Positions 6,874-29,423 of a DNA stretch of 64,000 nt are shown here, one piece after another. The notes below the pieces were generated by a model. The model did no database searches. It worked only from the letters and a program-made list of their open reading frames with translations, and was not told the origin of the DNA. Origin of the DNA: Rhodospirillaceae bacterium. Its GTDB lineage: Bacteria; Pseudomonadota; Alphaproteobacteria; UBA828. Position numbers and translations under genes: made by a program. How positions within the stretch are numbered: position 1 is the first letter of the stretch; each line of letters opens with the position of its first letter. The stretch spans positions 12,889 through 76,888 of the forward strand of contig JABIXB010000205.1 in assembly GCA_018666805.1 (NCBI GenBank). Direction: 5' to 3'.

Positions 6874-8481
6874 ATGCAGCACCGAGGTCCCTTCGTCAGC
6901 CCGCACGGGTTGGATTCGTTAGGTATTGAGCAGGTTCAAACCGCCTACTGGAATCTAACCACCCCCTCTCTTTACGAAGAATCCATCCGCCGCGGCGAAG
7001 CCCGCGTCGCCAAGGGCGGCCCGCTGGTCGCCATGACCGGCATCCACACCGGACGCTCACCGAACGATAAGTTTTTTACGCGCGAGCCATCGACGGAAAA
7101 CGACATCTGGTGGGGCGATGTCAACCGGCCGATCGATGCCGCGCAATTTGACAGCCTCGAGAGCCGCATCAAGGCCCATCTCGGCGGCAAGGATGTCTTC
7201 GTCCAGGATTGCTTCGCCGGCGCCGACCCGGCCTACCGCCTGCCGATCCGCGTGGTTTCGGAATTTGCCTGGCACAGCCTGTTCGCGCGCAACCTGTTGA
7301 TCACGCCGAGCCTCACCGAGCTCAAGGATCACAAGCCTGAATTCACCATCATCCAGGCGCCCGGCTTCTCGGCTGACCCGGCGAAGGACGGGGTTAATTC
7401 GGAAACCTGCATTTTGGTCAATTTCGCCAAACGGCTGGTCCTCATTGGCGGCACCTCTTACGCCGGCGAATGTAAGAAATCGGTCTTCACCATTCTCAAT
7501 TTCCTGCTGCCGGCACAGGGCGTGCTGCCCATGCATTGCTCGGTCAACACGGGAAAAGGTGGTGATTCGGCGATCTTTTTTGGCCTCTCCGGCACCGGCA
7601 AGACAACCCTTTCCGCCGATCCCGACCGCACCCTGATCGGCGACGATGAGCATGGCTGGTCGGACAATGGCTTGTTCAACTTCGAAGGCGGCTGCTACGC
7701 CAAGATGATCCGCCTCTCGGCCAAGGCGGAGCCCGAGATTCACGCCACAACAAAGATGTTCGGCACCGTGCTTGAGAATGTCGCGATGCATGACGAGACG
7801 CGCGAGCTTGATCTCGACGACGCCACCTTCACCGAAAATACGCGCGGCGCCTATCCGCTGTCCTTCATTCCCAACGCCAGCGCCGACGGCATCACCGGCC
7901 ATCCGGATAATGTCATCATGCTCACGGCGGACGCGTTCGGCGTGCTGCCGCCGATTGCGCGGCTCAGCCCGGAACAGGCGATGTATCATTTTCTCTCGGG
8001 CTATACGGCAAAAGTCGCGGGCACCGAAAAAGGCCTGGGCAAGGAACCGCAAGCCACTTTCTCGACCTGCTTCGGCGCGCCCTTCATGCCGCGCCATCCA
8101 TCCGTCTATGCGGAAATGCTGCGCGACAAGATCGAGCAGACCGGGGCAAAATGCTGGCTCGTCAATACCGGCTGGACCGGTGGCGCCTATGGTGTCGGCG
8201 AACGGATGAAAATATCCCACACCAGGGCGCTGTTGCGCGCCGCGCTCGACGGCTCGCTCAACAAGGTCCAGATGCGACGCGATGCCTGTTTTGGCCTTGA
8301 AGTGCCGGAATCCTGCCCCGGCGTGCCGGATGAGGTGCTCAACCCGCGCGATACCTGGGGCGACAAAAGCGCCTATGACAGCCAGGCCAGCGACTTGGTC
8401 GGACGCTTCCACAATAATTTCACACAATTCGAAACCCATGTCAGTGAAGCGGTTAAGGCGGCCGCACCACACGCCGCCTAA
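6874..8481 (+). CDS. pckA: Phosphoenolpyruvate carboxykinase (ATP)
   Basis: [10 protein letters not shown]-loop, RSPNDKF, and full-length similarity to ATP-dependent PEPCK. The start is placed at MQHRGPF, giving 536 aa. Confidence 0.9.
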
Positions 8482-8517
8482 CTCCGCACAAAAATTTAGC
8501 CGGGGGGGTAACAGGCA

Positions 8518-9396
8518 ATGATTTCGAGTGACGCACGCTATTCGAAGAAAACCGCAGAGGTGAGCGGCGCCCGCATGGCCTATGTCGAAACCGGCAGCGG
8601 CGATCCGATCGTATTTCTGCACGGCAACCCGACCTCATCTTATTTGTGGCGTAATGTGATACCCCATCTGGAAGGTCTTGGGCGCTGTATCGCACCCGAC
8701 CTGATTGGCATGGGAGATTCGGACAAGTTGCCCGGGTCCGGCCCGGACAGTTATCGTCTGGTCGATCATATCGATTATTTGGACGGACTGCTGGCGGCCC
8801 TCGGCGTGAGCGAAAATGTGCTGTTCGTCGCGCATGATTGGGGCGGCCCACTCGCCTTCGATTGGCTGAGACGGCACAGTGCGGCGGCAAAGGGCATTGC
8901 CTATATGGAAACCATCGTGACGCCGATGAGTTGGGCCGGTTGGCCCGACGCGGCGCGCGACCTGTTCCAGGCGTTCCGCTCGCCAGCCGGCGAGAAAATC
9001 ATTTTGGAAAAAAATACTTTCGTCGAAAAGGTCCTGCCGGGCTCGGTCCTGCGCCAGCTCGACGAAGCGGAGATGGCGGCCTACCGCAAGCCATTTGAAG
9101 AGCCGGGCGAAGGCCGGCGGCCGACCCTCACCTGGCCGCGCCAACTGCCGATGGACGGCGAGCCGGCCGATGTGGTCGAAATCGTCAAGGCCAACGACAC
9201 TTTTATGAGCGCCAGCCAAATGCCGAAATTGCTCATCAATGCAGAGCCCGGCGCTATTCTGAAAGGCCCGCTGCGCGAGCATTGTCTAGCCTGGCCGAAT
9301 ACGCAGGAAGTCACCGTCGCCGGCAATCATTTCATTCAGGAAGATTCGCCGGATGAAATCGGCCAGGCGATCGCAGATTGGTATCGCGGCCTCTAG
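8518..9396 (+). CDS. Haloalkane dehalogenase family alpha/beta-hydrolase (DhaA/DhmA-like)
   Basis: HGNPTSSYLWRNVIPH (halide-stabilising Trp motif), HDWGG nucleophile elbow and C-terminal GNHFIQED catalytic His region. Confidence 0.7.
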   Translation: MISSDARYSKKTAEVSGARMAYVETGSGDPIVFLHGNPTSSYLWRNVIPHLEGLGRCIAPDLIGMGDSDKLPGSGPDSYRLVDHIDYLDGLLAALGVSENVLFVAHDWGGPLAFDWLRRHSAAAKGIAYMETIVTPMSWAGWPDAARDLFQAFRSPAGEKIILEKNTFVEKVLPGSVLRQLDEAEMAAYRKPFEEPGEGRRPTLTWPRQLPMDGEPADVVEIVKANDTFMSASQMPKLLINAEPGAILKGPLREHCLAWPNTQEVTVAGNHFIQEDSPDEIGQAIADWYRGL

Positions 9397-9438
9397 TCCA
9401 CCCTAAATTTACCGACCCCATCATGGAGAATAAAAGTA

Positions 9439-10197
9439 ATGCAGTATTTTGATGACCTGCCCTACACCGTGGCTGTGGTCGGCGCCGGCAGCGGCATTGG
9501 CAAGACGACGGCGGAACTGATCGGGTCGATGGGCGTCTCTGTCGGTTGTCTCGACAAAAATGCGGAGGCGGCCGAAGATACCGCGCAGGCGATCGAGGCG
9601 GCGGGCGGCAAGGCCTGCTCCTACGCCATGGAAGTAACCGACCCGGCAAGCGCCAAAAGCGCGCTCGATCATGTCGAAGATATACTCGGCAACATCTCAG
9701 GCCTGGTGAATTGCGCCGGCATCACCGGCAAAACAGCGGTGCTCGGCGCGGATGTCGATCTCGATGATTTCGACCAGGTGCATGATATCAACGTCAAGGG
9801 TGCGCTGATCGTTTCCCAGGCAGTGCTGCCCAGCATGTTGGCACGTGGTTATGGCCGCGTGCTGCACGTCGCCTCGATCTCCGGCAAGGAAGGGAATTCC
9901 GGCATGCTGGCTTATTCGACCTCCAAGGCCGGGCTGATCGGCATGGTCAAGGTACTGGGCAAGGATTACGCCGAATCGGGCGTTACCATCAACGCCATCG
10001 CACCGGCCGTGGTGCGGACACCGATGGTCGATGTTCTGCCGAAAGAAACCGTCACCTATATGACCGATAAAATCCCGATGAAACGCTGCTGCGAGCTTAG
10101 CGAAGTGGCGCAGTTGATCGCCTGGACCATCTCACCGGCGTGCAGCTTCAACACCGGCTATGTGTTTGACATGACCGGCGGGCGCGCCACCTATTAG
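9439..10197 (+). CDS. SDR family NAD(P)-dependent oxidoreductase
   Basis: VVGAGSGIGK cofactor motif, NCAG, S..YSTSKAG (YxxxK active site), PG.V.T. Confidence 0.85.
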   Translation: MQYFDDLPYTVAVVGAGSGIGKTTAELIGSMGVSVGCLDKNAEAAEDTAQAIEAAGGKACSYAMEVTDPASAKSALDHVEDILGNISGLVNCAGITGKTAVLGADVDLDDFDQVHDINVKGALIVSQAVLPSMLARGYGRVLHVASISGKEGNSGMLAYSTSKAGLIGMVKVLGKDYAESGVTINAIAPAVVRTPMVDVLPKETVTYMTDKIPMKRCCELSEVAQLIAWTISPACSFNTGYVFDMTGGRATY

Positions 10198-10198
10198 T

Positions 10199-11842
10199 TT
10201 AATCGACGACGATGATTTCGCCGAGAAAGCTCTCTTGAATGCGAATCGTCGCGACACCGCTTTGGATCGACTGCGTCGGAACGACGGCGGTGGCGGCGGA
10301 ATAGCCATCGGCGGCGTAGCGCCGGGTGATGGCATGGGAGATGCTGTAGAGATCGCTTACCGAGACCTCACTGCCAATATAGTGCCGGTAAATCGGCAGT
10401 AATTCACGCGCCGAATAGATTGAGGAACCGTCGATGATGACGCCGGCCAACTCAAAGCGCATCTCGGCCGCATCCTCTTCAGGCAGAATATCGACAGCCA
10501 GATCGCCAGATTCTTCCTGACTATCGAGCGCCGCATCAATTCTCGCCCATTCCGATTGTTCTTCCTCCAATTCTTCTTCCAATGCCGGTTTGGTTGCGCT
10601 CGTTTCATCCGCGCCCTCCGCGCGTTCCGCAACCGCTTGCGGCTCGGGCTCCAACGCGGCAACCACCTGTTCCACCTCCGGCTCGACAACCTGCTCGACC
10701 ATAGCGACTTCGGCCTCAGGCGGTTGCTCGGGCTCCGGAGCAACGACAGTAATCTCAGCCTTTTCCGGCTCAGGTTCCGGTGTCTCGACCACGATCTCGA
10801 CCTCTTCCGGCTCGGGCTCCGGCGTTTCGACAACGACCTCGACCTCCTCCGGCTCAGGCTCCGGCGTTTCGACAACGACCTCGATCTCTTCCGGCTCAGA
10901 CTCCGGCGCCACTGCGGCGATCTCGATCTCTTCCGTTTCGGCGGCAACGATCTCCGGCGCCGCTTCGTCGGCAACAATATCCACGGTCTGTTCGGCGTAA
11001 TCGCCCCGAGTGACCTCTTCGGGGTCCATCTCAGGCTCGCTGCTCTCGACCGGCTCGACCACAGCGACGATCGTTTCTTCTGGTGCCTCCTCGGGCACCG
11101 TCTCTGCCACTGCCTCGACCACGGCAGCGTCTTCCGCCGCCGGTGTTTCGCCCGCCCCATCCTTGGTATCCAGGCGTGAAGCCAATTTCGGCATGACGGC
11201 GCCGAAATCGCGCCCCTGGGCGCTGAACAGCTCGGCCACATTGTTGAAGAGGACAGCGCTGGTCAACGGATGGACGCGCTCGATCTCGGCCAGGATACCG
11301 AGGGCGCGGCGATACAGCGGCTCGGCCTCGGCAAATCTCGCTTCGAGATAATAAAGTTGCGCCAAATCGTTCAAACTAACGGCCACCGCCATGTGATTGG
11401 GGCCGAATTCCATCTCCTTGATCTTAATCGTCCGGAGATAGAGCGTTTCCGCCTCATCATAGCGACCCTGCCAGCGATACAATTTAGCCAATTTTCCGAC
11501 CAATACGGCGGTGGTGCGGTGGCCCATGCCCAAGGATCGCTCGGCCGACTGCACGGCCTCGACCAACAGCGGCTCAGCCTCCCCGAGATGGCCCATCTCA
11601 ATATGCAGCTCGGCAACATTAGCGTAGAGAACGGCCGAAGTCGGGTGACCCTCGCCAAACTCGCTTTCATGCAATTCGATCAGTTTAAGCGCATGCGGCA
11701 GTGCCTCTTCAAAGCGGTCCTGCGCATAGTGCGTGGCATAGAGGTTGTAGGTATCGAGAAGCGCGTCCGATTGCGCCCAGCCCGTGGCCGGGGCCAGCGC
11801 GAACGCCGCAACCGCCGCTATCGCCCACCTTCTGGCCTTCAT
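10199..11842 (-). CDS. Periplasmic protein with TPR repeats, an acidic tandem-repeat region and a C-terminal POTRA_2-like domain, with no beta-barrel
   Basis: Signal peptide MKARRWAIAAVAAFALAPATGWA. About 200 aa of TPR (YANVAELHIEMG, LAKLYRWQGRYDEAE, LAQLYYLEARFAEAE). About 180 aa of PEPEPEEVEVVVET repeats. The C-terminus GVIIDGSSIYSARELLPIYRHYIGSEVSVSDLYSISHAITRRYAADGYSAATAVVPTQSIQSGVATIRIQESFLGEI matches the ShlB/FhaC-type POTRA pattern. The stop abuts the convergent SDR gene. Confidence 0.65.
   Translation of the reverse strand: MKARRWAIAAVAAFALAPATGWAQSDALLDTYNLYATHYAQDRFEEALPHALKLIELHESEFGEGHPTSAVLYANVAELHIEMGHLGEAEPLLVEAVQSAERSLGMGHRTTAVLVGKLAKLYRWQGRYDEAETLYLRTIKIKEMEFGPNHMAVAVSLNDLAQLYYLEARFAEAEPLYRRALGILAEIERVHPLTSAVLFNNVAELFSAQGRDFGAVMPKLASRLDTKDGAGETPAAEDAAVVEAVAETVPEEAPEETIVAVVEPVESSEPEMDPEEVTRGDYAEQTVDIVADEAAPEIVAAETEEIEIAAVAPESEPEEIEVVVETPEPEPEEVEVVVETPEPEPEEVEIVVETPEPEPEKAEITVVAPEPEQPPEAEVAMVEQVVEPEVEQVVAALEPEPQAVAERAEGADETSATKPALEEELEEEQSEWARIDAALDSQEESGDLAVDILPEEDAAEMRFELAGVIIDGSSIYSARELLPIYRHYIGSEVSVSDLYSISHAITRRYAADGYSAATAVVPTQSIQSGVATIRIQESFLGEIIVVD
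10760..10935. repeat. Tandem repeat inside the TPR gene, period about 45 bp, about 3.5 copies
   Basis: Near-identical units ctcttccggctcgggctccggcgtttcgacaacgacctcgac encode the repeats EEVEVVVETPEPEP. Confidence 0.7.
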
Positions 11843-11850
11843 GAACTGAA

Positions 11851-12111
11851 TACCAAGGGGTGGTGATAGTGACACATAGGGATCGCCCCTGCGGCCTGTC
11901 GGGTAGGAGGGAGGCCGCAGGCGATGCGGCGCATCGGCAAGGCCTTCCGACGCCCTCCAACAGGCCGCAGGGGCGACCGGTTCGGCGGCTTACCAAGGCT
12001 TTCGGACGGCGTCGCGCGTGCCTTGCGATGTGCCGCATCGCCACGCCCCACGCTCCTAGCCGAAAGCCTTGGTAAGCCGTCCCTATGCGCCACTATCACC
12101 ACCCCTTGGTA
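11851..12111. mobile_element. MITE-like non-autonomous element with 32-bp terminal inverted repeats and nested internal palindromes
   Basis: Left end TACCAAGGGGTGGTGATAGTGACACATAGGGA (11851-11882) and right end TCCCTATGCGCCACTATCACCACCCCTTGGTA (12080-12111) are reverse complements at 30 of 32 positions. Internal perfect 16-bp inverted pairs are CGCCCCTGCGGCCTGT/ACAGGCCGCAGGGGCG and TTACCAAGGCTTTCGG/CCGAAAGCCTTGGTAA. If the ends are read as CCAAGG..CCTTGG, the element is flanked by TA dinucleotides. No transposase ORF is present. Confidence 0.5.
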
Positions 12112-23000: not shown

Positions 23001-23150
23001 ACTGAGTCTCTAACATAAGCTTGGCCGCCGGAAAACGAAGTGGCATGGCCAATGTCATTTTATTTTTGACAGAGTCTTCTTTACGTGGCAATTCGGCACA
23101 CGCATTTGCTTGTCCGTGCGTATCCAAAGTCATAAGGGGAGAGATTAATC

Positions 23151-23531
23151 GTGGCGAATCCAAAATGGGGCACCAAACGTATGTGCCTCGGCTGCGGTAA
23201 ACGATTTTACGACATGCAGCGCAGTCCGATCGCATGTCCATCCTGCGATGCGCCGTTCGAAATCATCCCGCCGGGAAGAACGAGACGCCAGCGTGCCCCT
23301 GTCGAAGTGGTGGCCGCACCCGTCGTCGAGACACCCGTCGCTGCCCCCGTTGAAGTGGAGGGCGAGGAAGTGAAACCGGTCGAAGACGAGACCGGCGGCA
23401 CGGAAGATATTGCTGAGGCCGACGAAAAAGACGCCGAAACCCTGGAGGATCCATCGGAATTAGGCGAGGACGAAGACGACGTCGCCGAAGTTCTCGACGG
23501 CATGGAAGAACCGGACAAGACGGACATTTGA
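23151..23531 (+). CDS. TIGR02300-type protein: N-terminal zinc ribbon (FYDL motif) with an acidic C-terminal tail
   Basis: MANPKWGTKRMCLGCGKRFYDMQRSPIACPSCDAPF, then a D/E-rich tail. This conserved alphaproteobacterial protein is commonly divergent from aroA. Confidence 0.7.
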   Translation: MANPKWGTKRMCLGCGKRFYDMQRSPIACPSCDAPFEIIPPGRTRRQRAPVEVVAAPVVETPVAAPVEVEGEEVKPVEDETGGTEDIAEADEKDAETLEDPSELGEDEDDVAEVLDGMEEPDKTDI

Positions 23532-23606
23532 GAAAGAAATCTTGTCCCGGACTTGCGCGAACGCCTGGCGTTCCATATTTTTGAACCAGCGCGCGCAAAA
23601 TCGCAT

Positions 23607-23682
<76 letters not shown>

Positions 23683-23688
23683 AATCTC

Positions 23689-23718
23689 GGGGAGCCTAGC
23701 TGACACCGGCTAGGCCCC
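23689..23718. terminator. Possible bidirectional hairpin between tRNA-Ala and the convergent DUF1326 gene
   Basis: GGGGAGCCTAGC-tgacacc-GGCTAGGCCCC forms an 11-bp stem with one bulge. Only a weak T-tract (GAGATTT) follows, on the minus-strand side. Confidence 0.3.
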
Positions 23719-23727
23719 TCTACGAAT

Positions 23728-24366
23728 CTAAGCGGCGCTTCTGATGACGCCTTTATTGCCGAGGTGAATTTCGGCGAATTGGCCGTAGCTTTTTTCGAAT
23801 GAGAGCTCAATGGCGCCTGACGTCGTCGTCGTGCCGCTGCCCATTTCAGCCAACTCAAATTCGAACCCATGTGGCAAATCAATGCGCGCGCGGTGGATGT
23901 TTCCGGTGGCCGGGTTGCGAATCGGCTCACCGATGCCGTCGATCACGCCGGGCACGACGAGACGCGCGGTTCTGTTCTCGACATCTACCTCGAAATCGAT
24001 CGGTAGAAACAGAGGATCATGAATCTTACTCGACATGGTGGTGTAGACAGACCAGACCGTCGTCATGGGCTCGGTTTCCTCGCCCTTCAAAATACGAAAC
24101 ACGGCATCGCGCTGGGCATCGCTCGCGCTTTCATCGATGATGACCTGCATTTCGCCGTCGCCGCCATGCACCGGGCCAGGCCATTTGTAAACGGCGGCCG
24201 CGCGCACGCCATCCAGTTTGACATCCCCAAAATGCCCTTCGTCGATTTGATAGCCGACCGCCGCTTCGCAGGTGCCATGCGTCGGCAGAGCATTGAATTG
24301 ACAGGGGCAACCATAGTCGCAATTGCAATTTGCAAATTCGCGCGCCTTTATTCGCCAATCGATCAT
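23728..24366 (-). CDS. DUF1326 family protein
   Basis: N-terminal FANCNCDYGCPCQF Cys cluster typical of DUF1326; 212 aa. It is the last gene of the minus-strand cluster. Confidence 0.6.
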   Translation of the reverse strand: MIDWRIKAREFANCNCDYGCPCQFNALPTHGTCEAAVGYQIDEGHFGDVKLDGVRAAAVYKWPGPVHGGDGEMQVIIDESASDAQRDAVFRILKGEETEPMTTVWSVYTTMSSKIHDPLFLPIDFEVDVENRTARLVVPGVIDGIGEPIRNPATGNIHRARIDLPHGFEFELAEMGSGTTTTSGAIELSFEKSYGQFAEIHLGNKGVIRSAA

Positions 24367-24388
24367 AAGATTTATCCCTCCCCGGATA

Positions 24389-26026
24389 TTATTGTTCTAT
24401 CGATTCTTTCAGCATGCCCGCCACCATTTGGGCCATCTCCTCTTTGTCGTAGGGCTTCCAAATGATCGGCACGCCTTCCATTACCTGGCCGCTATCGGCG
24501 AGATATTCCTCACGGTAGCCAGACATGAACAGCAGCTTGAGGCCGGGCCTGAGACGCAGGCCAATCTCGGCAACCTGGGGTCCGTTCAGGCCGTGCGGCA
24601 TGGCGATATCGGAAAACAAAAGATCGATACGCTCATTGCCCTCCAATACCGCCTGGGCGGCGCGGCCATCGCCCGCCTCGATCACATGATAGCCCAACTC
24701 GCGCAATAATTTTGCCACCAGATAGCGCACCTCGGCTTCATCCTCGACGAGCAGAATCGACTTCTTCGGCGGGCCGGCACGGGCCACCTTGCCGGGCAAA
24801 TTTTGTTCCGTCGCCTTGGGCAGATAGAGGGCAACCGTGGTGCCTTTGCCGACTTGGCTATCAATTTTGGCGAAGCCGCCCGATTGTTGAGCAAACCCGA
24901 AAACCATACTCAAGCCGAGGCCTGTTCCCTTGCCGACTTCCTTGGTGGTGAAAAAGGGCGTTACCGCGTTTTCGATCAGCTCCGCCGACATACCGATGCC
25001 TTCATCGCGCACCGAGAGCCGCACATAGTCGCCGGCGGCGACATCAAGAAGATTTGCCGCCTCCTGTTCGTCGATGACCGCGTTTTCCGCGATGATCGTA
25101 ATGCTGCCGCCATTGGGCAGTGCATCGCGCGCATTGACCGCAAGGTGGAGAAGTGTGTTGTCGATTTGGCTGCGGTCGGCAAACACCGGCCACAGCGTGT
25201 CGGAAATGCGGGTTTTGACCGCCGCCATTTCACTGACCGCTGCCTGCAGAAGTGGCACCGAATCGGGAATGAGATAATTGAGATAAAGCTGCTCGGGTTC
25301 CAAATGTTGCTTGCGCGAAAAGGCCAATAACCTTTCGGTCAAATCCGCACCGCGTACGGCGCCACGGCGCGCCGCTTCGATCAACTGCAGAATATCGCCA
25401 TCCTGAGGCACGCAATCTTCGAGCAGGTCGAGATTGCCGAGAATCACAAACAGCAGATTATTAAATTCGTGCGCAACATTGCCGGTCAAGCTATCGATCG
25501 CTTCGATATTCTGATTTTGCCGGAATTGCTGTTCGAGCATTTTGCGATCCGTCACGTCCTGCAGAATGCCCTCAATGATCGTCGATTGACCGGCGGAAAT
25601 TGTTTCCGCTTCATAGCGTTCGCTGATATGGCGGATCTGGCCATTGGGCCGGACAATGCGATATTCGAGGTTCGGAATTATCTCGCCAGCCAGCTCCTCT
25701 TGAATGACCGCTCCCACCCGCTCCTTGTCTTCGGGGTGGACCCGCGCCATCAAGGTATCGATGGAGGCAATGTCGGATGCCGGATCAAGGCCAAGAATGC
25801 GAAACAATTCATCCGACCATTTCAACTGGCCACTTTCCATATGCCTTTCAAATAGGCCGATATGGGCGACCTTCTGGGCGTGCCGCAAACGCGATTCACT
25901 GGCGCGCAACGCCTCTTCAACAATTTGTGAATCGGTGACATCGCGCGCACCTTCGCGGTTTAAATCGCGAGGTGGGGATGGCCTGTCGGTGATGTCGCGC
26001 CGAGCCATATCGCTGCCTGGCTCCAT
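24389..26026 (-). CDS. Cytoplasmic hybrid sensor histidine kinase (PAS + HisKA + HATPase_c + REC)
   Basis: No TM segment. PAS region (HIGLFERHMESGQLKWSDELFRILG), H-box NVAHEFNNLL, and the N-box, G1 and G2 (GTGLGLS) motifs. The C-terminal receiver domain has LLVEDE...D...MP...K. Confidence 0.85.
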   Translation of the reverse strand: MEPGSDMARRDITDRPSPPRDLNREGARDVTDSQIVEEALRASESRLRHAQKVAHIGLFERHMESGQLKWSDELFRILGLDPASDIASIDTLMARVHPEDKERVGAVIQEELAGEIIPNLEYRIVRPNGQIRHISERYEAETISAGQSTIIEGILQDVTDRKMLEQQFRQNQNIEAIDSLTGNVAHEFNNLLFVILGNLDLLEDCVPQDGDILQLIEAARRGAVRGADLTERLLAFSRKQHLEPEQLYLNYLIPDSVPLLQAAVSEMAAVKTRISDTLWPVFADRSQIDNTLLHLAVNARDALPNGGSITIIAENAVIDEQEAANLLDVAAGDYVRLSVRDEGIGMSAELIENAVTPFFTTKEVGKGTGLGLSMVFGFAQQSGGFAKIDSQVGKGTTVALYLPKATEQNLPGKVARAGPPKKSILLVEDEAEVRYLVAKLLRELGYHVIEAGDGRAAQAVLEGNERIDLLFSDIAMPHGLNGPQVAEIGLRLRPGLKLLFMSGYREEYLADSGQVMEGVPIIWKPYDKEEMAQMVAGMLKESIEQ

Positions 26027-26096
26027 GAGTATGAAAGTTGGGCTTCAGCCTATTCAATTCATGTGAATGCGTCCAGCTTGCAAGCCGGCGGGTGGA

Positions 26097-26798
26097 TCAG
26101 CCGCGAAATCCCTTGTGCAGCCACCAGGATACTTCGTTCATCGAATAATACGGTTTGTAGTGACGGATGGTGGAATGTTCGACCACGCGGCGGATCTGAT
26201 TGTCGAGGATGTAACCCTCGCCGCCGAGATAGACCACCAGGATGGCGTGGCCGACATTGAGGTTGAGATCCTCCACCACGACGATGCGCAGCTCTTCGAC
26301 CGTATAGCCGAGCGCGCGCAGCGACATATATTTGCTGATCGCGTAATCCTCGCAGTCGCCATCGTGAATGAAGAATTGCTGTGGCGTCGCCCAATAATCC
26401 TCTTTGTTCCAATTACGGATATCGGTGATGTAGCGGATGCTGTTGAGGTAGCGGTTGACCTTGCCGATCTGCTGGCGCCGTGAGGTGGCGGAAAGGTCGC
26501 GGGTCGAATCTAGGAAGGCCTGCCATTTTTTGAGATGGCATTGATTGAAGGTGCGCGCGTCGCACGAACCCTCGGGAATCTGATCGGTTTTGAAATAGCG
26601 CTTGAGCATGCCGCGCCATTTGGGAAAGGCCTTGAGATTGTGGCTGTTAATTTCGCGCGTGCCGAACAGTTTGGGATAGGGACCGGAGCCGGCTTCGAGC
26701 GGCACCAGGCCGCCCCAGGCACCGAGCAACAGCGCCGCCACGATCCCGCCCAGGACCGTCCGCGCCAACCATCTCTCTATCCCCGTTCGATTCGACAT
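26097..26798 (-). CDS. Bacterial transglutaminase-like cysteine proteinase (BTLCP, DUF920), LapG-like periplasmic protease
   Basis: Signal or TM segment, then GDCEDYAISKYMSL (catalytic Cys), HAILVVY (His), ILDN (Asp) and PYYSMN..W. The spacing of these motifs matches LapG-family proteases. Start placed at MSNRTG. Confidence 0.7.
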   Translation of the reverse strand: MSNRTGIERWLARTVLGGIVAALLLGAWGGLVPLEAGSGPYPKLFGTREINSHNLKAFPKWRGMLKRYFKTDQIPEGSCDARTFNQCHLKKWQAFLDSTRDLSATSRRQQIGKVNRYLNSIRYITDIRNWNKEDYWATPQQFFIHDGDCEDYAISKYMSLRALGYTVEELRIVVVEDLNLNVGHAILVVYLGGEGYILDNQIRRVVEHSTIRHYKPYYSMNEVSWWLHKGFRG

Positions 26799-26894
26799 GC
26801 GTTTCGACCGTTCTAATTTCCAACTGCCCGGCATGATGCCAGCGATAACAGTTTTCATTCTGTAATAGTTATCACTGGCAACACTAGAGAATTA

Positions 26895-27947
26895 TTAATC
26901 CCCATTTGCGCCCGGAAAGGCGCGAAAGGCTGTCGGAATGCGCTGAATATCGGCGATCAGGCTGGGTGGCATGTCGGCGCTCAAATGCGGCGCCGTGCTG
27001 GCATAGATGGAGTCCGAAAAGCCGCTAAACCGATCGGCAATCCGCTTCCTAATCTCGCCATGGCAGCCCCATACGGCAAAGAGAGCGAGCACATCATCAG
27101 TGATTTCATCGGCCAAATCCTGCCACTTGCCTTCCTTAACCATGGCGTGGAGCTTGAGGCCGAGATCCTCCAGGCCATGCTCTTGCAAGACCGGCCAGTA
27201 GGCGCGCGTCGAGCCGTAAAAAGCCACCCGCTGACGCACCCAGGCCAGCCTTTCTTCAACCGCCGCTTCATCAGCGCCGGTGGCGATAAATCCGCCGCCG
27301 GTGATCTCGAAGCCGTCGCGCGCCCGCCCCGCCTTCTCAAGGCCGGCCAGCATTATCGGCAAAACGACATTTTCCTGATAGCGCTTGGTGCAAAAGGGAT
27401 GCAGCCGCACGCCATCGCACATTTCCGCCGCAACACGCAGCATCGCCGGGCCAACGGCCCCAATGGTGATGGCCGGCGGCGGCGCAGCCATCACCTCCGG
27501 CACAAAAGCCGGAGTCATCAATGAAAAATTATAATGCTTGCCTTCGAATTGTAGTTTTTCGCCGGTTTTCCAGCACTGCCAGATGGCGCGAAGTGCCTGA
27601 ATATACTCACGCATCCTTGGGCCCGGCGCGCTCCATGGCACGGAAAAGCGGCGCTCATTGTGGCCGCGCACTTGCGTGCCGAGACCAAGTACAAAGCGGC
27701 CGTCGGATGCCGATTGCAGATCCCAGCCGAGATTGGCCATCACCATGGGGCTGCGCGGAAAGGCGATTGCCACGCCGGTGAGAAGGCCGATGCGCCGTGT
27801 CGCCGTGGCGGCGACGCCGAGCGGCAGAAATGGATCATGCCGGTTCTCCATGCCCATCAAGCCGTCAAACCCGGCGTCTTCGGCGGCAATTGCGGCGGCG
27901 GGAACCTTCTTCAGATCGTCCTGCGGTAAGGTGGTGTATATTTTCAT
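26895..27947 (-). CDS. Luciferase-like monooxygenase (LLM class) flavin/F420-dependent oxidoreductase
   Basis: TIM-barrel LLM pattern (GFDGLMGMENR, FVLGLGTQ, GHNERRF); 350 aa. Confidence 0.75.
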   Translation of the reverse strand: MKIYTTLPQDDLKKVPAAAIAAEDAGFDGLMGMENRHDPFLPLGVAATATRRIGLLTGVAIAFPRSPMVMANLGWDLQSASDGRFVLGLGTQVRGHNERRFSVPWSAPGPRMREYIQALRAIWQCWKTGEKLQFEGKHYNFSLMTPAFVPEVMAAPPPAITIGAVGPAMLRVAAEMCDGVRLHPFCTKRYQENVVLPIMLAGLEKAGRARDGFEITGGGFIATGADEAAVEERLAWVRQRVAFYGSTRAYWPVLQEHGLEDLGLKLHAMVKEGKWQDLADEITDDVLALFAVWGCHGEIRKRIADRFSGFSDSIYASTAPHLSADMPPSLIADIQRIPTAFRAFPGANGD

Positions 27948-27955
27948 GCAATGCC

Positions 27956-28576
27956 TCAGCTGAGCTCGATCATGACGTGCTCGCGGTAAGCCTCGCGCGC
28001 CTGCAAACGCTCATACCACGCCATCAGATGGGGCATATCGGGATGCGGGATATCGAGCGCATAGTAACGGTAACAGGCACAGCCAAGCGGGATGTCGGCC
28101 ATCGTCAAATCCGCCCCCGCGACATAGGGCGTGGCCGCCAAATGTTCATCCAAAATGCGCCAATTTCCGGTCATTAGCTCGGCCCCAGCAGCGATCGCCG
28201 CACCATCGCGGTCCTCGGGCGGGGTGCGGATCAGGCCAACGAAAACCGGCGCCATGGGCGGAATGATGGCGCCGAGCATCCAATCCATCCAGCGATCCGC
28301 TGCGGCGCGCGCCGCCACATCCTCGGGCCACAGACTCCCGGCGCCATATTTGGCCGCGAGATAGCGCACCACCGCATTCGATTCCCAAACGATGGTGCCA
28401 TCGTCATCGATGGTGGGAATCAGACCGTTCGGGTTCATAGCCCGGAATTCCACCGTATCGAGGCCGCCAAACTGCCGGCCGACATCGTGGCGCTGATGCT
28501 CAAGCCCAAGCTCAGCCACGGTCCACATCACTTTTTGCACGTTGATGGAGTTATTTCGTCCCCAAACGGTCAGCAT
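27956..28576 (-). CDS. Glutathione S-transferase
   Basis: N-terminal thioredoxin-like GST domain (NSINVQKV...NPNGLIP...ESNAVVRYL) and a C-terminal helical domain; 206 aa. Confidence 0.85.
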   Translation of the reverse strand: MLTVWGRNNSINVQKVMWTVAELGLEHQRHDVGRQFGGLDTVEFRAMNPNGLIPTIDDDGTIVWESNAVVRYLAAKYGAGSLWPEDVAARAAADRWMDWMLGAIIPPMAPVFVGLIRTPPEDRDGAAIAAGAELMTGNWRILDEHLAATPYVAGADLTMADIPLGCACYRYYALDIPHPDMPHLMAWYERLQAREAYREHVMIELS

Positions 28577-28807
28577 ACTATTCTCCCTTAAGCTAATTTA
28601 TATGTATTAAAACAATGGTCTAAGGATTTATCACGGCGAATTGACCTGGAGCACCGCCAAGTTAACCACTTCTTACGAGATTGGGGCGCAATGTGGAACT
28701 TAAGCGTAAAAGCGCCAACGATGAACAACGATAATTTGGACTGCGGAAGGAAAGAGGCCGGTTGGGACTGAGTATTAGGCAATGTCCTCGACTGAAGGAG
28801 AAGTACA

Positions 28808-29146
28808 GTGAAACTTTTAATGGCCTTTATGATAGCGACCACCCTGCTGGCTGTGCCGTTCGCGGCAAAAGCCGAAGAGCCAGTGGATAGTCAATTCGTG
28901 CAAAGTGGCCCCAGGCCCAATTCCTGCGTCCCCCACAAAGTCGCCGTCGATCAGCTCTCGGAAATGTTCAACGAGAAAGTGGTCGGCCTTGGCCTTGGCA
29001 AGAACCAGCAAAGCGTTGTCGAGCTTTATGTCAGCAGTAAAGGCAGCTGGACGATTCTTGTTACGCTCACCAACGGCATGAGCTGCATCGCCGCTGCCGG
29101 TGAGAATTGGACCGATACCGCCGAGCAGGCTGAGCTCGCTTCCTAG
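28808..29146 (+). CDS. Small secreted hypothetical protein (signal peptide, 2 Cys)
   Basis: Signal peptide MKLLMAFMIATTLLAVPFAAKA. GC3-rich coding sequence sits next to an AT-rich leader. No family recognised. Confidence 0.45.
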   Translation: MKLLMAFMIATTLLAVPFAAKAEEPVDSQFVQSGPRPNSCVPHKVAVDQLSEMFNEKVVGLGLGKNQQSVVELYVSSKGSWTILVTLTNGMSCIAAAGENWTDTAEQAELAS

Positions 29147-29165
29147 TCTCTTTTTTAAGCAACGC

Positions 29166-29423
29166 TCAGCTGCTGCCGATCGGGGTCCAGCCATCCATCG
29201 CTTGCGCGTGGCACTCGACATCGCCAATGGTGCGGTAGCAAACGACCTCCGGCTGCGGCGCCGGTTTTTCCGGCGCAGCGAAGGTGTTGCAGACCGGCAC
29301 ATCGGCAAACCAGCGCAGCCAATCGCAATCCTGATGCGCCGTCTTGGCCAAATGATATTCCATCGGCGAGCCACAAGCGGCAAGCAACACCAATATGACG
29401 GCCAATAAGCCATATCGTTTCAT
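29166..29423 (-). CDS. Small lipoprotein with four Cys (hypothetical)
   Basis: Lipobox LLAAC-G after MKRYGLLAVILV. The mature protein is about 65 aa with a CDW...C...C..C pattern. Confidence 0.45.
   Translation of the reverse strand: MKRYGLLAVILVLLAACGSPMEYHLAKTAHQDCDWLRWFADVPVCNTFAAPEKPAPQPEVVCYRTIGDVECHAQAMDGWTPIGSS

Follow-up and report, generated by a model that had tools for sequence, protein, structure and literature searches.

Known systems and the locus under study

Periplasmic cysteine proteases of the BTLCP family (Peptidase_C93) have been described in the LapG/LapD/LapA system of Pseudomonas fluorescens and Legionella (PDB 4fgo, 4u65), in the DvhG/DvhD system of Desulfovibrio vulgaris Hildenborough and as HvyA in Caulobacter crescentus. 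The BTLCP DvhG is under the control of DvhD, a cyclic di-GMP (c-di-GMP) receptor and functional analogue of LapD (PMC10990149, PMC13090378); the HD domain of DvhD is degenerate, with SQ replacing the HD motif (PMC13090378). HvyA is an orphan alphaproteobacterial BTLCP that acts on capsulation and is transcriptionally regulated, and orphan BTLCPs are widespread in Alphaproteobacteria, where they occur in varied genomic contexts (PMC4241560). Both the orphan proteases of this class and the pairing of an HD-GYP-type receptor with a BTLCP in Desulfovibrio are already known. The present work concerns one such orphan, found in a 64-kb stretch of DNA, called the window below, from a Rhodospirillaceae bacterium (assembly GCA_018666805.1, contig JABIXB010000205.1). 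The BTLCP gene lies there in a minus-strand run of five genes that also encodes a glutathione S-transferase (GST), a luciferase-like oxidoreductase (LLM), a soluble PAS-containing hybrid histidine kinase and a DUF1326 protein. The cluster is best read as an ordinary adjacency, in which the BTLCP gene is an extra, unpaired copy of a DvhG-like gene and is functionally untied to its neighbours; the probability of this reading is put at roughly 0.6. The DNA analysed around the cluster was this one window, and the absences reported for it hold at that scale.

The window BTLCP has the C-H-D triad and the D-C-E calcium motif in common with DvhG (PMC10990149, PMC13090378). Unlike the proteases of DvhG-type pairs, it has no adjacent DvhD-like gene, and whereas dvhG belongs to the operon of dvhA and its type I secretion system, the window gene is near neither an adhesin nor a type I secretion operon. 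The two proteins also begin differently, with a signal-peptide-like N-terminus in the window BTLCP and a transmembrane (TM) helix followed by a linker of ~180 residues in DvhG, which is likened here by its description and by its partner. The fold, the catalytic and calcium residues and the predicted periplasmic location are shared with the LapG proteins of Legionella and Pseudomonas, which are the closest solved relatives by sequence (roughly 30-37% identity). The Lap system, however, comprises a receptor of LapD_MoxY_N-HAMP-GGDEF-EAL layout, lapEBC and a giant adhesin, all of them absent from the window, and the relatives of the window BTLCP pair with receptors of HD-GYP type. HvyA, likened by description, is likewise a periplasmic BTLCP from an alphaproteobacterium and lacks a LapD partner, but it is encoded in a capsule export locus and driven by CtrA and MucR (PMC4241560), whereas the window has neither a capsule locus nor a CtrA box.

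A preliminary description of the locus, made from the sequence before any comparison, had presented the protease as orphaned from its usual partners, and this proved correct throughout the window. It contains no gene for a LapD-like or GGDEF-EAL receptor, no lapEBC or other type I secretion genes (no ABC/MFP/TolC trio), no second BTLCP and, by tblastn, no DvhD homolog. No open reading frame (ORF) of the window exceeds 917 aa, and no giant adhesin is encoded in it.

The BTLCP protease

The protease matches PF06035 with 71.5 bits, against a curated cutoff of 27, and reaches 99.3 bits with the NCBIfam LapG equivalog model NF045674, whose cutoff is 320; by this score it is not a LapG equivalog. 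The name "LapG-like" given to it earlier is imprecise, since the equivalog cutoff is failed and the relatives pair with DvhD-type receptors. An AlphaFold2 model, with a mean confidence score (pLDDT) of 75 and values >90 in the catalytic core, has LapG structures as its top PDB matches, and the catalytic residues align with the catalytic region of LapG. Across 27 relatives (alignment A1, ORF numbering), C169, H204 and D219 are invariant; of the residues flanking the catalytic cysteine, E170 never varies and D168 is conserved to at least 90%. Acidic residues flanking the cysteine constitute the calcium site in LapG and DvhG. The relatives have an additional N-terminal block, LFGTRE..FPKW..RYF..C..FN.CHL..W, which holds two invariant cysteines.

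The first two in-frame ATG codons of the ORF vary among relatives, and the third (M21, window position 26798) is kept in a junction alignment of six relatives. As only this third ATG is conserved, the protein most likely starts there and comprises 233 aa, which sets the spacer to the LLM gene at 96 nt. From this start the N-terminus consists of a basic stretch, a hydrophobic run of ~19 residues and then PLEA/GS, as read by eye rather than with a predictor. An exact-sequence lookup with the 253-aa ORF gave no match, because gene callers choose other start codons; the relatives of the locus were reached through the BTLCP relative P0001 and an exact match of the DUF1326 protein, P0121. In intact copies of the BTLCP gene the ratio of nonsynonymous to synonymous substitution rates (dN/dS) is 0.13-0.17, compared with 0.10-0.16 for LLM and 0.10-0.13 for GST, and on these ratios the intact copies are under purifying selection, like the neighbouring genes. 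The gene is predicted to encode a DvhG/LapG-type cysteine protease that is exported by Sec to the periplasm, depends on calcium and is active.

A DvhD-like protein as the partner of related proteases

The neighbourhoods of 80 genome loci with BTLCP relatives at 35-59% identity were compared by clustering the six-frame ORFs within 6 kb of the protease gene. The sole strongly recurrent neighbour was a protein of ~714 aa, encoded for the most part divergently from BTLCP, which was present in 51/81 related loci and adjoined the protease gene in 35 of the 55 loci having at least 3 kb on both sides. It is made up of an N-terminal TM helix, a periplasmic dCache-like region (dCache_1), a second TM helix, PAS_4 and HD_5 (HD-GYP), and the partners in related loci are therefore of the HD-GYP and not of the GGDEF-EAL type. 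Among solved structures it is closest to D. vulgaris DvhD (PDB 9rc0/9rbz; E 1e-38, 136 bits; runner-up 60 bits), whose architecture matches that of the protein found beside most alphaproteobacterial relatives of the window BTLCP. In the alignment with the partner, 9rc0/9rbz shows SQ at the position of the HD motif; this motif is degenerate in all 47 full-length partners (MN, LN or VN, and SQ once), and the GYP motif is degenerate in most. Because its relatives are partnered with DvhD-type proteins, the family of the window BTLCP is DvhG-like and not LapG-like.

Further recurrent neighbours in the related loci were a histidine kinase with six TM helices, a response regulator with REC and a Fis-type HTH, and a third, unscanned protein, which we take to be RegB-, RegA- and SenC-like, respectively. 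A protein combining PfkB and cytidylyltransferase domains, presumably HldE-like, a metallophosphoesterase, pyruvate kinase and ManC also recurred. Apart from the DvhD-like partner, the recurrent neighbours are housekeeping genes.

DvhD/DvhG-like pairs were found among loci L007 and L009-L088, in Rhodospirillales-like metagenome-assembled genomes (MAGs), Kordiimonas, Dongia and Algihabitans, and also in at least one gammaproteobacterium (Marichromatium). Examples are L019 (partner at 7511-9652, BTLCP at 10001-10576) and L009 (partner at 7687-9564, BTLCP at 9974-10687). The alphaproteobacterial BTLCP loci examined had neither adhesin nor type I secretion genes nearby, and to judge from these gene neighbourhoods the pairs appear to be common in Alphaproteobacteria and usually to lie away from adhesin operons. 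Periplasmic proteolysis of the DvhD/DvhG type, controlled by c-di-GMP, has so far been characterised in Desulfovibrio, and the alphaproteobacterial pairs may extend the published distribution: the text of the supplement to PMC13090378, its class-level Fig. 9b aside, does not name Alphaproteobacteria, Rhodospirill-, Kordiimonas or Dongia.

Two alphaproteobacterial MAG loci, L076 (9845-11619) and L078 (9602-11489), carry two tandem BTLCP genes and no DvhD-like neighbour.

Origin of the window copy

In a neighbour-joining tree, a distance method, rooted with LapG (partial outgroup sequences) and bootstrapped 200 times, the window BTLCP and seven relatives (79-95% identity in the trimmed alignment) were monophyletic in 200/200 replicates. 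This clade was nested within the DvhD-paired alphaproteobacterial BTLCPs, again in all 200 replicates. Its sister in the best tree was L009 (106/200 replicates), a DvhD-paired BTLCP on contig CAYSDJ010000014 of a MAG that also holds, on contig CAYSDJ010000046, a 95% ortholog of the window gene. The simplest reading of this topology is that the window BTLCP is a lineage-restricted duplicate that lost its adjacency to the receptor gene. Some alphaproteobacterial genomes carry extra unpaired BTLCP copies of this kind.

Synteny within the close clade

The preliminary description had envisaged a different regulatory wiring of the protease, under redox or stress control, and named conserved linkage to the kinase or to DUF1326 among the points to examine. 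Such linkage was not found. Homologs of GST, LLM and DUF1326 occurred within 10 kb of the BTLCP gene in 0/80 loci at 35-59% BTLCP identity, where kinase-like matches were weak and sporadic. The surroundings of DUF1326 homologs at 71-77% identity are unrelated to this locus and include the classic pairing with PF09948/DUF2182.

Within the clade, GST, LLM and BTLCP are flanked by conserved synteny that includes mutS and the genes for a 2-hydroxyacid dehydrogenase, a glyoxalase, an aminotransferase and a pyridoxal-phosphate (PLP) decarboxylase, and, in all lineages except L097/98, for a 112-aa protein. The part that follows BTLCP is a mosaic. In the window and in L094-96 (99.7-99.85% nucleotide identity to the window), BTLCP is followed by the kinase, DUF1326 and a tRNA-Ala gene, and L001-3 (95% BTLCP identity) have the same order with ~3.5 kb of extra genes between DUF1326 and the tRNA. 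Only the kinase separates BTLCP from tRNA-Ala in L090/92, and only DUF1326 does so in L097/98, so that the five-gene order is not conserved across relatives, one lineage lacking the kinase and another lacking DUF1326. In two lineages insertion sequence or integrase genes come after BTLCP, namely an integrase fragment and a transposase in L089 and IS110 in L005/6. The latter adjoins a BTLCP whose C-terminus has been replaced (P0011, L005/L006 10001-10642). In L093 the contig ends after a BTLCP (P0010, 4288-4956) with an in-frame deletion of 17 residues, the catalytic cysteine among them. Both lesions are inactivating. Window positions 23001-29000 (6 kb) are 99.7-99.85% identical in nucleotide sequence to contigs of GCA_018700315.1, ERZ23491215 and ERZ27237644.

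The same tRNA-Ala gene adjoins FYDLN/aroA in L001 and L090 and stands at the end of L097; on this comparison, a variable segment begins after BTLCP and has its constant boundary at tRNA-Ala(GGC). Since the kinase and DUF1326 were lost separately while BTLCP stayed under purifying selection, each of them is dispensable for keeping the protease. The whole cluster was also considered as a tRNA-linked genomic island, a view rejected for GST-LLM-BTLCP because these genes are embedded in conserved core synteny; for the segment between BTLCP and tRNA-Ala alone it is plausible. Depending on the lineage, this hot spot (window 23607-24388 and the matching parts of L001, L089, L090, L005 and L097) may also hold genes for an enoyl-CoA hydratase (ECH), a CoA-transferase and a short-chain dehydrogenase (SDR), which make up the extra 3.5 kb, or IS110/IS240.

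Ordinary adjacency is favoured because the protease is a lineage-restricted copy and because the kinase and DUF1326 come and go between close relatives; the preliminary description had mentioned unrelated adjacency as its fallback, and this is where the evidence points. The sequence of events might have been as follows. An extra copy of an alphaproteobacterial DvhG-like gene would have arisen from a parent that normally adjoins a DvhD-type inner-membrane c-di-GMP receptor (periplasmic dCache, PAS and a catalytically dead HD-GYP). The copy sits in a core stretch that runs from mutS through the aminotransferase, the PLP decarboxylase, GST, LLM, BTLCP and the variable segment to tRNA-Ala, aroA and cmk. 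GST and LLM would then be cytoplasmic enzymes that merely lie upstream, and the kinase and DUF1326 would be independently gained or lost genes of the tRNA-adjacent variable segment.

A conserved motif upstream of the protease gene

The spacer between LLM and BTLCP contains a 28-nt non-coding motif, TAGTGTNGNNNGTGATANCTATTACAGA. When six divergent members of the clade are aligned, it is nearly invariant amid variable flanking spacer and variable third codon positions nearby. Clade members that share it differ at more than half of their synonymous coding sites. The motif occurs once in the window, where chance alone would yield 0 matches, and is complete also in L094, L096, L097 and L098; among 93 loci, its 16-nt core was present in 11/11 clade loci and in 0/82 others. 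This conservation suggests a candidate promoter or operator that would give BTLCP a control region of its own. The protease might be controlled either in trans, by a DvhD-like receptor encoded elsewhere, or solely through its own transcription from the spacer motif. By analogy with LapG and DvhG, its substrate would be an envelope protein accessible from the periplasm; the likeliest target would be the N-terminal region by which a type I secreted adhesin is retained.

The spacing of the genes had been called compatible with a single transcript from the AT-rich region upstream of GST. The low GC content of that region was confirmed (0.45 versus about 0.58-0.60), while the spacer motif hints at separate control of BTLCP. 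The four gaps between the five genes measure 8, 36, 70 and 22 bp, the second becoming 96 bp when counted from the conserved BTLCP start, and they are as tight as first described; none of them has a terminator-like site on the minus strand. Closely packed on one strand (gaps of 8-96 bp) and with no such site between them, the five genes may be co-transcribed.

A 13-bp hairpin in the LLM-BTLCP spacer of the window (z -2.3) was rejected as a conserved RNA element, its 3' arm being missing in L089, L090, L005 and L093. When positions 23400-29300 were scanned against Rfam at E<=1, the tRNA alone was returned, so the spacers contain no riboswitch or leader of a known kind. A scan with the sigma-70 consensus, which is uninformative for Alphaproteobacteria, gave no minus-strand promoter match in the region.

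Weighing of alternative explanations

Several observations weigh against ordinary adjacency. The sister position of L009 has a bootstrap support of only 53%, and the DvhD-like partner is known from the MAG with the 95% ortholog, the window's own 64 kb having none. The order GST-LLM-BTLCP is constant in every member of the close clade, which could reflect more than inertia. Finally, there is the co-directional, closely packed and terminator-free arrangement itself, and GST, the F420-type LLM and DUF1326, a family with a reported peroxidase member, share a redox theme.

These last two points would also be expected if the five genes formed one stress or redox operon, in which the PAS hybrid kinase senses redox state and a phosphorelay controls the detoxifying enzymes together with an envelope-remodelling protease. 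Peroxidase activity has been reported for a DUF1326 protein, DmdF (PMC12992908), and the kinase ortholog stays beside BTLCP in two lineages with a readable flank. An operon of this kind is nevertheless unlikely, and the wiring first suggested for the locus finds no comparative support. No BTLCP outside the narrow clade has these neighbours, and inside it the kinase is absent from L097/98 and DUF1326 from L090, while BTLCP persists with a dN/dS of ~0.13. The kinase, moreover, diverges much faster than its neighbours (57% versus 78-86% identity), and the motif conserved upstream of BTLCP points to a control of its own. The kinase is also cytoplasmic and has neither an HPt domain nor a DNA-binding output (Pfam), so any link between it and BTLCP would need further partners.

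It is likewise improbable that the window BTLCP is an HvyA-like factor acting on the export of capsule or exopolysaccharide, with its activity set by abundance (transcription and turnover) and not by a c-di-GMP receptor. HvyA offers the precedent of a transcriptionally regulated orphan (PMC4241560). Near the two closest DvhD-paired relatives (L007, L009) there is a gene for mannose-1-phosphate guanylyltransferase, and the lack of type I secretion and adhesin genes near the alphaproteobacterial loci examined would agree with a target other than an adhesin. On the other hand, the relatives are DvhD-paired, which points to receptor-controlled proteolysis, and the window has no capsule or polysaccharide genes. 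It also contains 0 sites for the CtrA box TTAA-N7-TTAA, so that HvyA-style control is not supported.

Much less credit can be given to a more specific proposal, according to which the duplicate left the control of the c-di-GMP receptor and is now induced by a phosphorelay from the adjacent PAS kinase, through the 28-nt motif as an operator. If this were true, proteolysis of the envelope or of an adhesin would be tied to a cytoplasmic redox signal, beside the detoxifying enzymes GST, F420-LLM and DUF1326. A decaying, redundant duplicate that has no role of its own might be read from the catalytic cysteine deletion in P0010/L093, from the C-terminus replaced beside IS110 in P0011/L005/L006 and from the paired paralogue in a related MAG, but it is very doubtful, because the gene is intact in the window lineage and in three other lineages, its catalytic residues are all conserved, its dN/dS equals that of housekeeping-type neighbours and its upstream motif is conserved too.

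Ordinary adjacency, with BTLCP as an unpaired DvhG-like copy, gives the locus a mostly negative value: where a BTLCP gene lies beside redox enzymes and a kinase, both the label "LapG" and the reading as a new circuit need comparative support. Of broader significance are the homologous DvhD/DvhG-type pairs in Alphaproteobacteria, which raise the questions of what the substrates of the alphaproteobacterial proteases are and whether one receptor serves several protease paralogues.

Layout of the locus and features of the neighbouring genes

The five minus-strand ORFs at 23728-28576 and their families were confirmed by ORF analysis and by Pfam and NCBIfam profile searches, in agreement with the preliminary description. 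The features are listed below.

Table 1. Positions of the cluster genes and adjoining elements in the 64-kb window
Feature	Position	Strand	Evidence or remarks
tRNA-Ala(GGC)	23607..23682	+	ARAGORN, Rfam; just past DUF1326
DUF1326 protein, 212 aa	23728..24366	-	PF07040 at 187 bits
Soluble hybrid histidine kinase PAS_3-HisKA-HATPase_c-REC, 545 aa	24389..26026	-	Pfam
BTLCP (Peptidase_C93) cysteine protease, 233 aa from conserved start	26097..26798	-	PF06035; longest ORF reaches 26858
Conserved 28-nt non-coding motif in LLM-BTLCP spacer (candidate promoter/operator)	26859..26886	-	~60 nt upstream of conserved BTLCP start
Luciferase-like oxidoreductase, TIGR03617 F420-dependent subfamily, 350 aa	26895..27947	-	PF00296, TIGR03617
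Glutathione S-transferase, 206 aa, cytoplasmic	27956..28576	-	Pfam GST_N_2, GST_N, GST_C_2
Low-GC divergent intergenic region between GST and the 112-aa protein gene	28577..28807		GC 0.45
Small secreted-protein gene, 112 aa	28808..29146	+	Signal-peptide-like N-terminus

The GST reached no NCBIfam equivalog cutoff. The LLM matched PF00296 (Bac_luciferase) with 206 bits and TIGR03617 with 398 bits, against a cutoff of 278 for the latter, and its closest solved structures are F420-dependent methylenetetrahydromethanopterin (methylene-H4MPT) reductases. An LLM of the F420-dependent TIGR03617 type thus occurs in a MAG assigned to the alphaproteobacterial 'Rhodospirillaceae'. Genes for F420 synthesis (cofC/D/E/G/H) were not noticed in the window, although no search aimed at them was made.

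The translation of the kinase has no hydrophobic segment, and its conserved start is probably M7 (window position 26008). Its core is nearest to CckA-type kinases (NCBIfam; PDB 5idj). The ortholog in L090 and L092, to which the identity of 57% refers, has an extra PAS domain.

The DUF1326 protein has an invariant Cys-rich motif, N-C-N-C-x3-C-P-C, and C14, C16, C20, C22 and C33 are invariant. It belongs to the same family as DmdF of Roseobacters, for which peroxidase activity with consumption of H2O2 was reported (PMC12992908). Unlike DmdF, which is found with DmdE (DUF2182), the window protein lacks both a DUF2182/PpoB2 partner next to it and the dmdA/acuI/dmdR context; the DUF2182 partner is kept by homologs that are more distant. 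Homologs from outside the Rhodobacterales are stated to be phylogenetically distinct (PMC12992908).

The remainder of the window is ordinary core chromosome, with gpsA, pckA, folC, accD, trpB, rpsA, cmk and aroA, together with mutS, phoR-pstCAB-phoU-phoB, dnaK, hrcA and rph. The minus-strand ORF at 10199-11875 (558 aa) has TPR repeats and, at its C-terminus, a POTRA_2 domain of ShlB type, but it shows no barrel domain, so that either the architecture is odd or the gene is split. Next to the gene of the 112-aa protein, which has no Pfam match, ~170 nt of non-coding DNA (28640-28807) are strongly conserved despite heavy synonymous divergence, the part proximal to GST not being so. This stretch has no Rfam match and, to judge from its conservation, may serve as a long 5' leader or in regulation.

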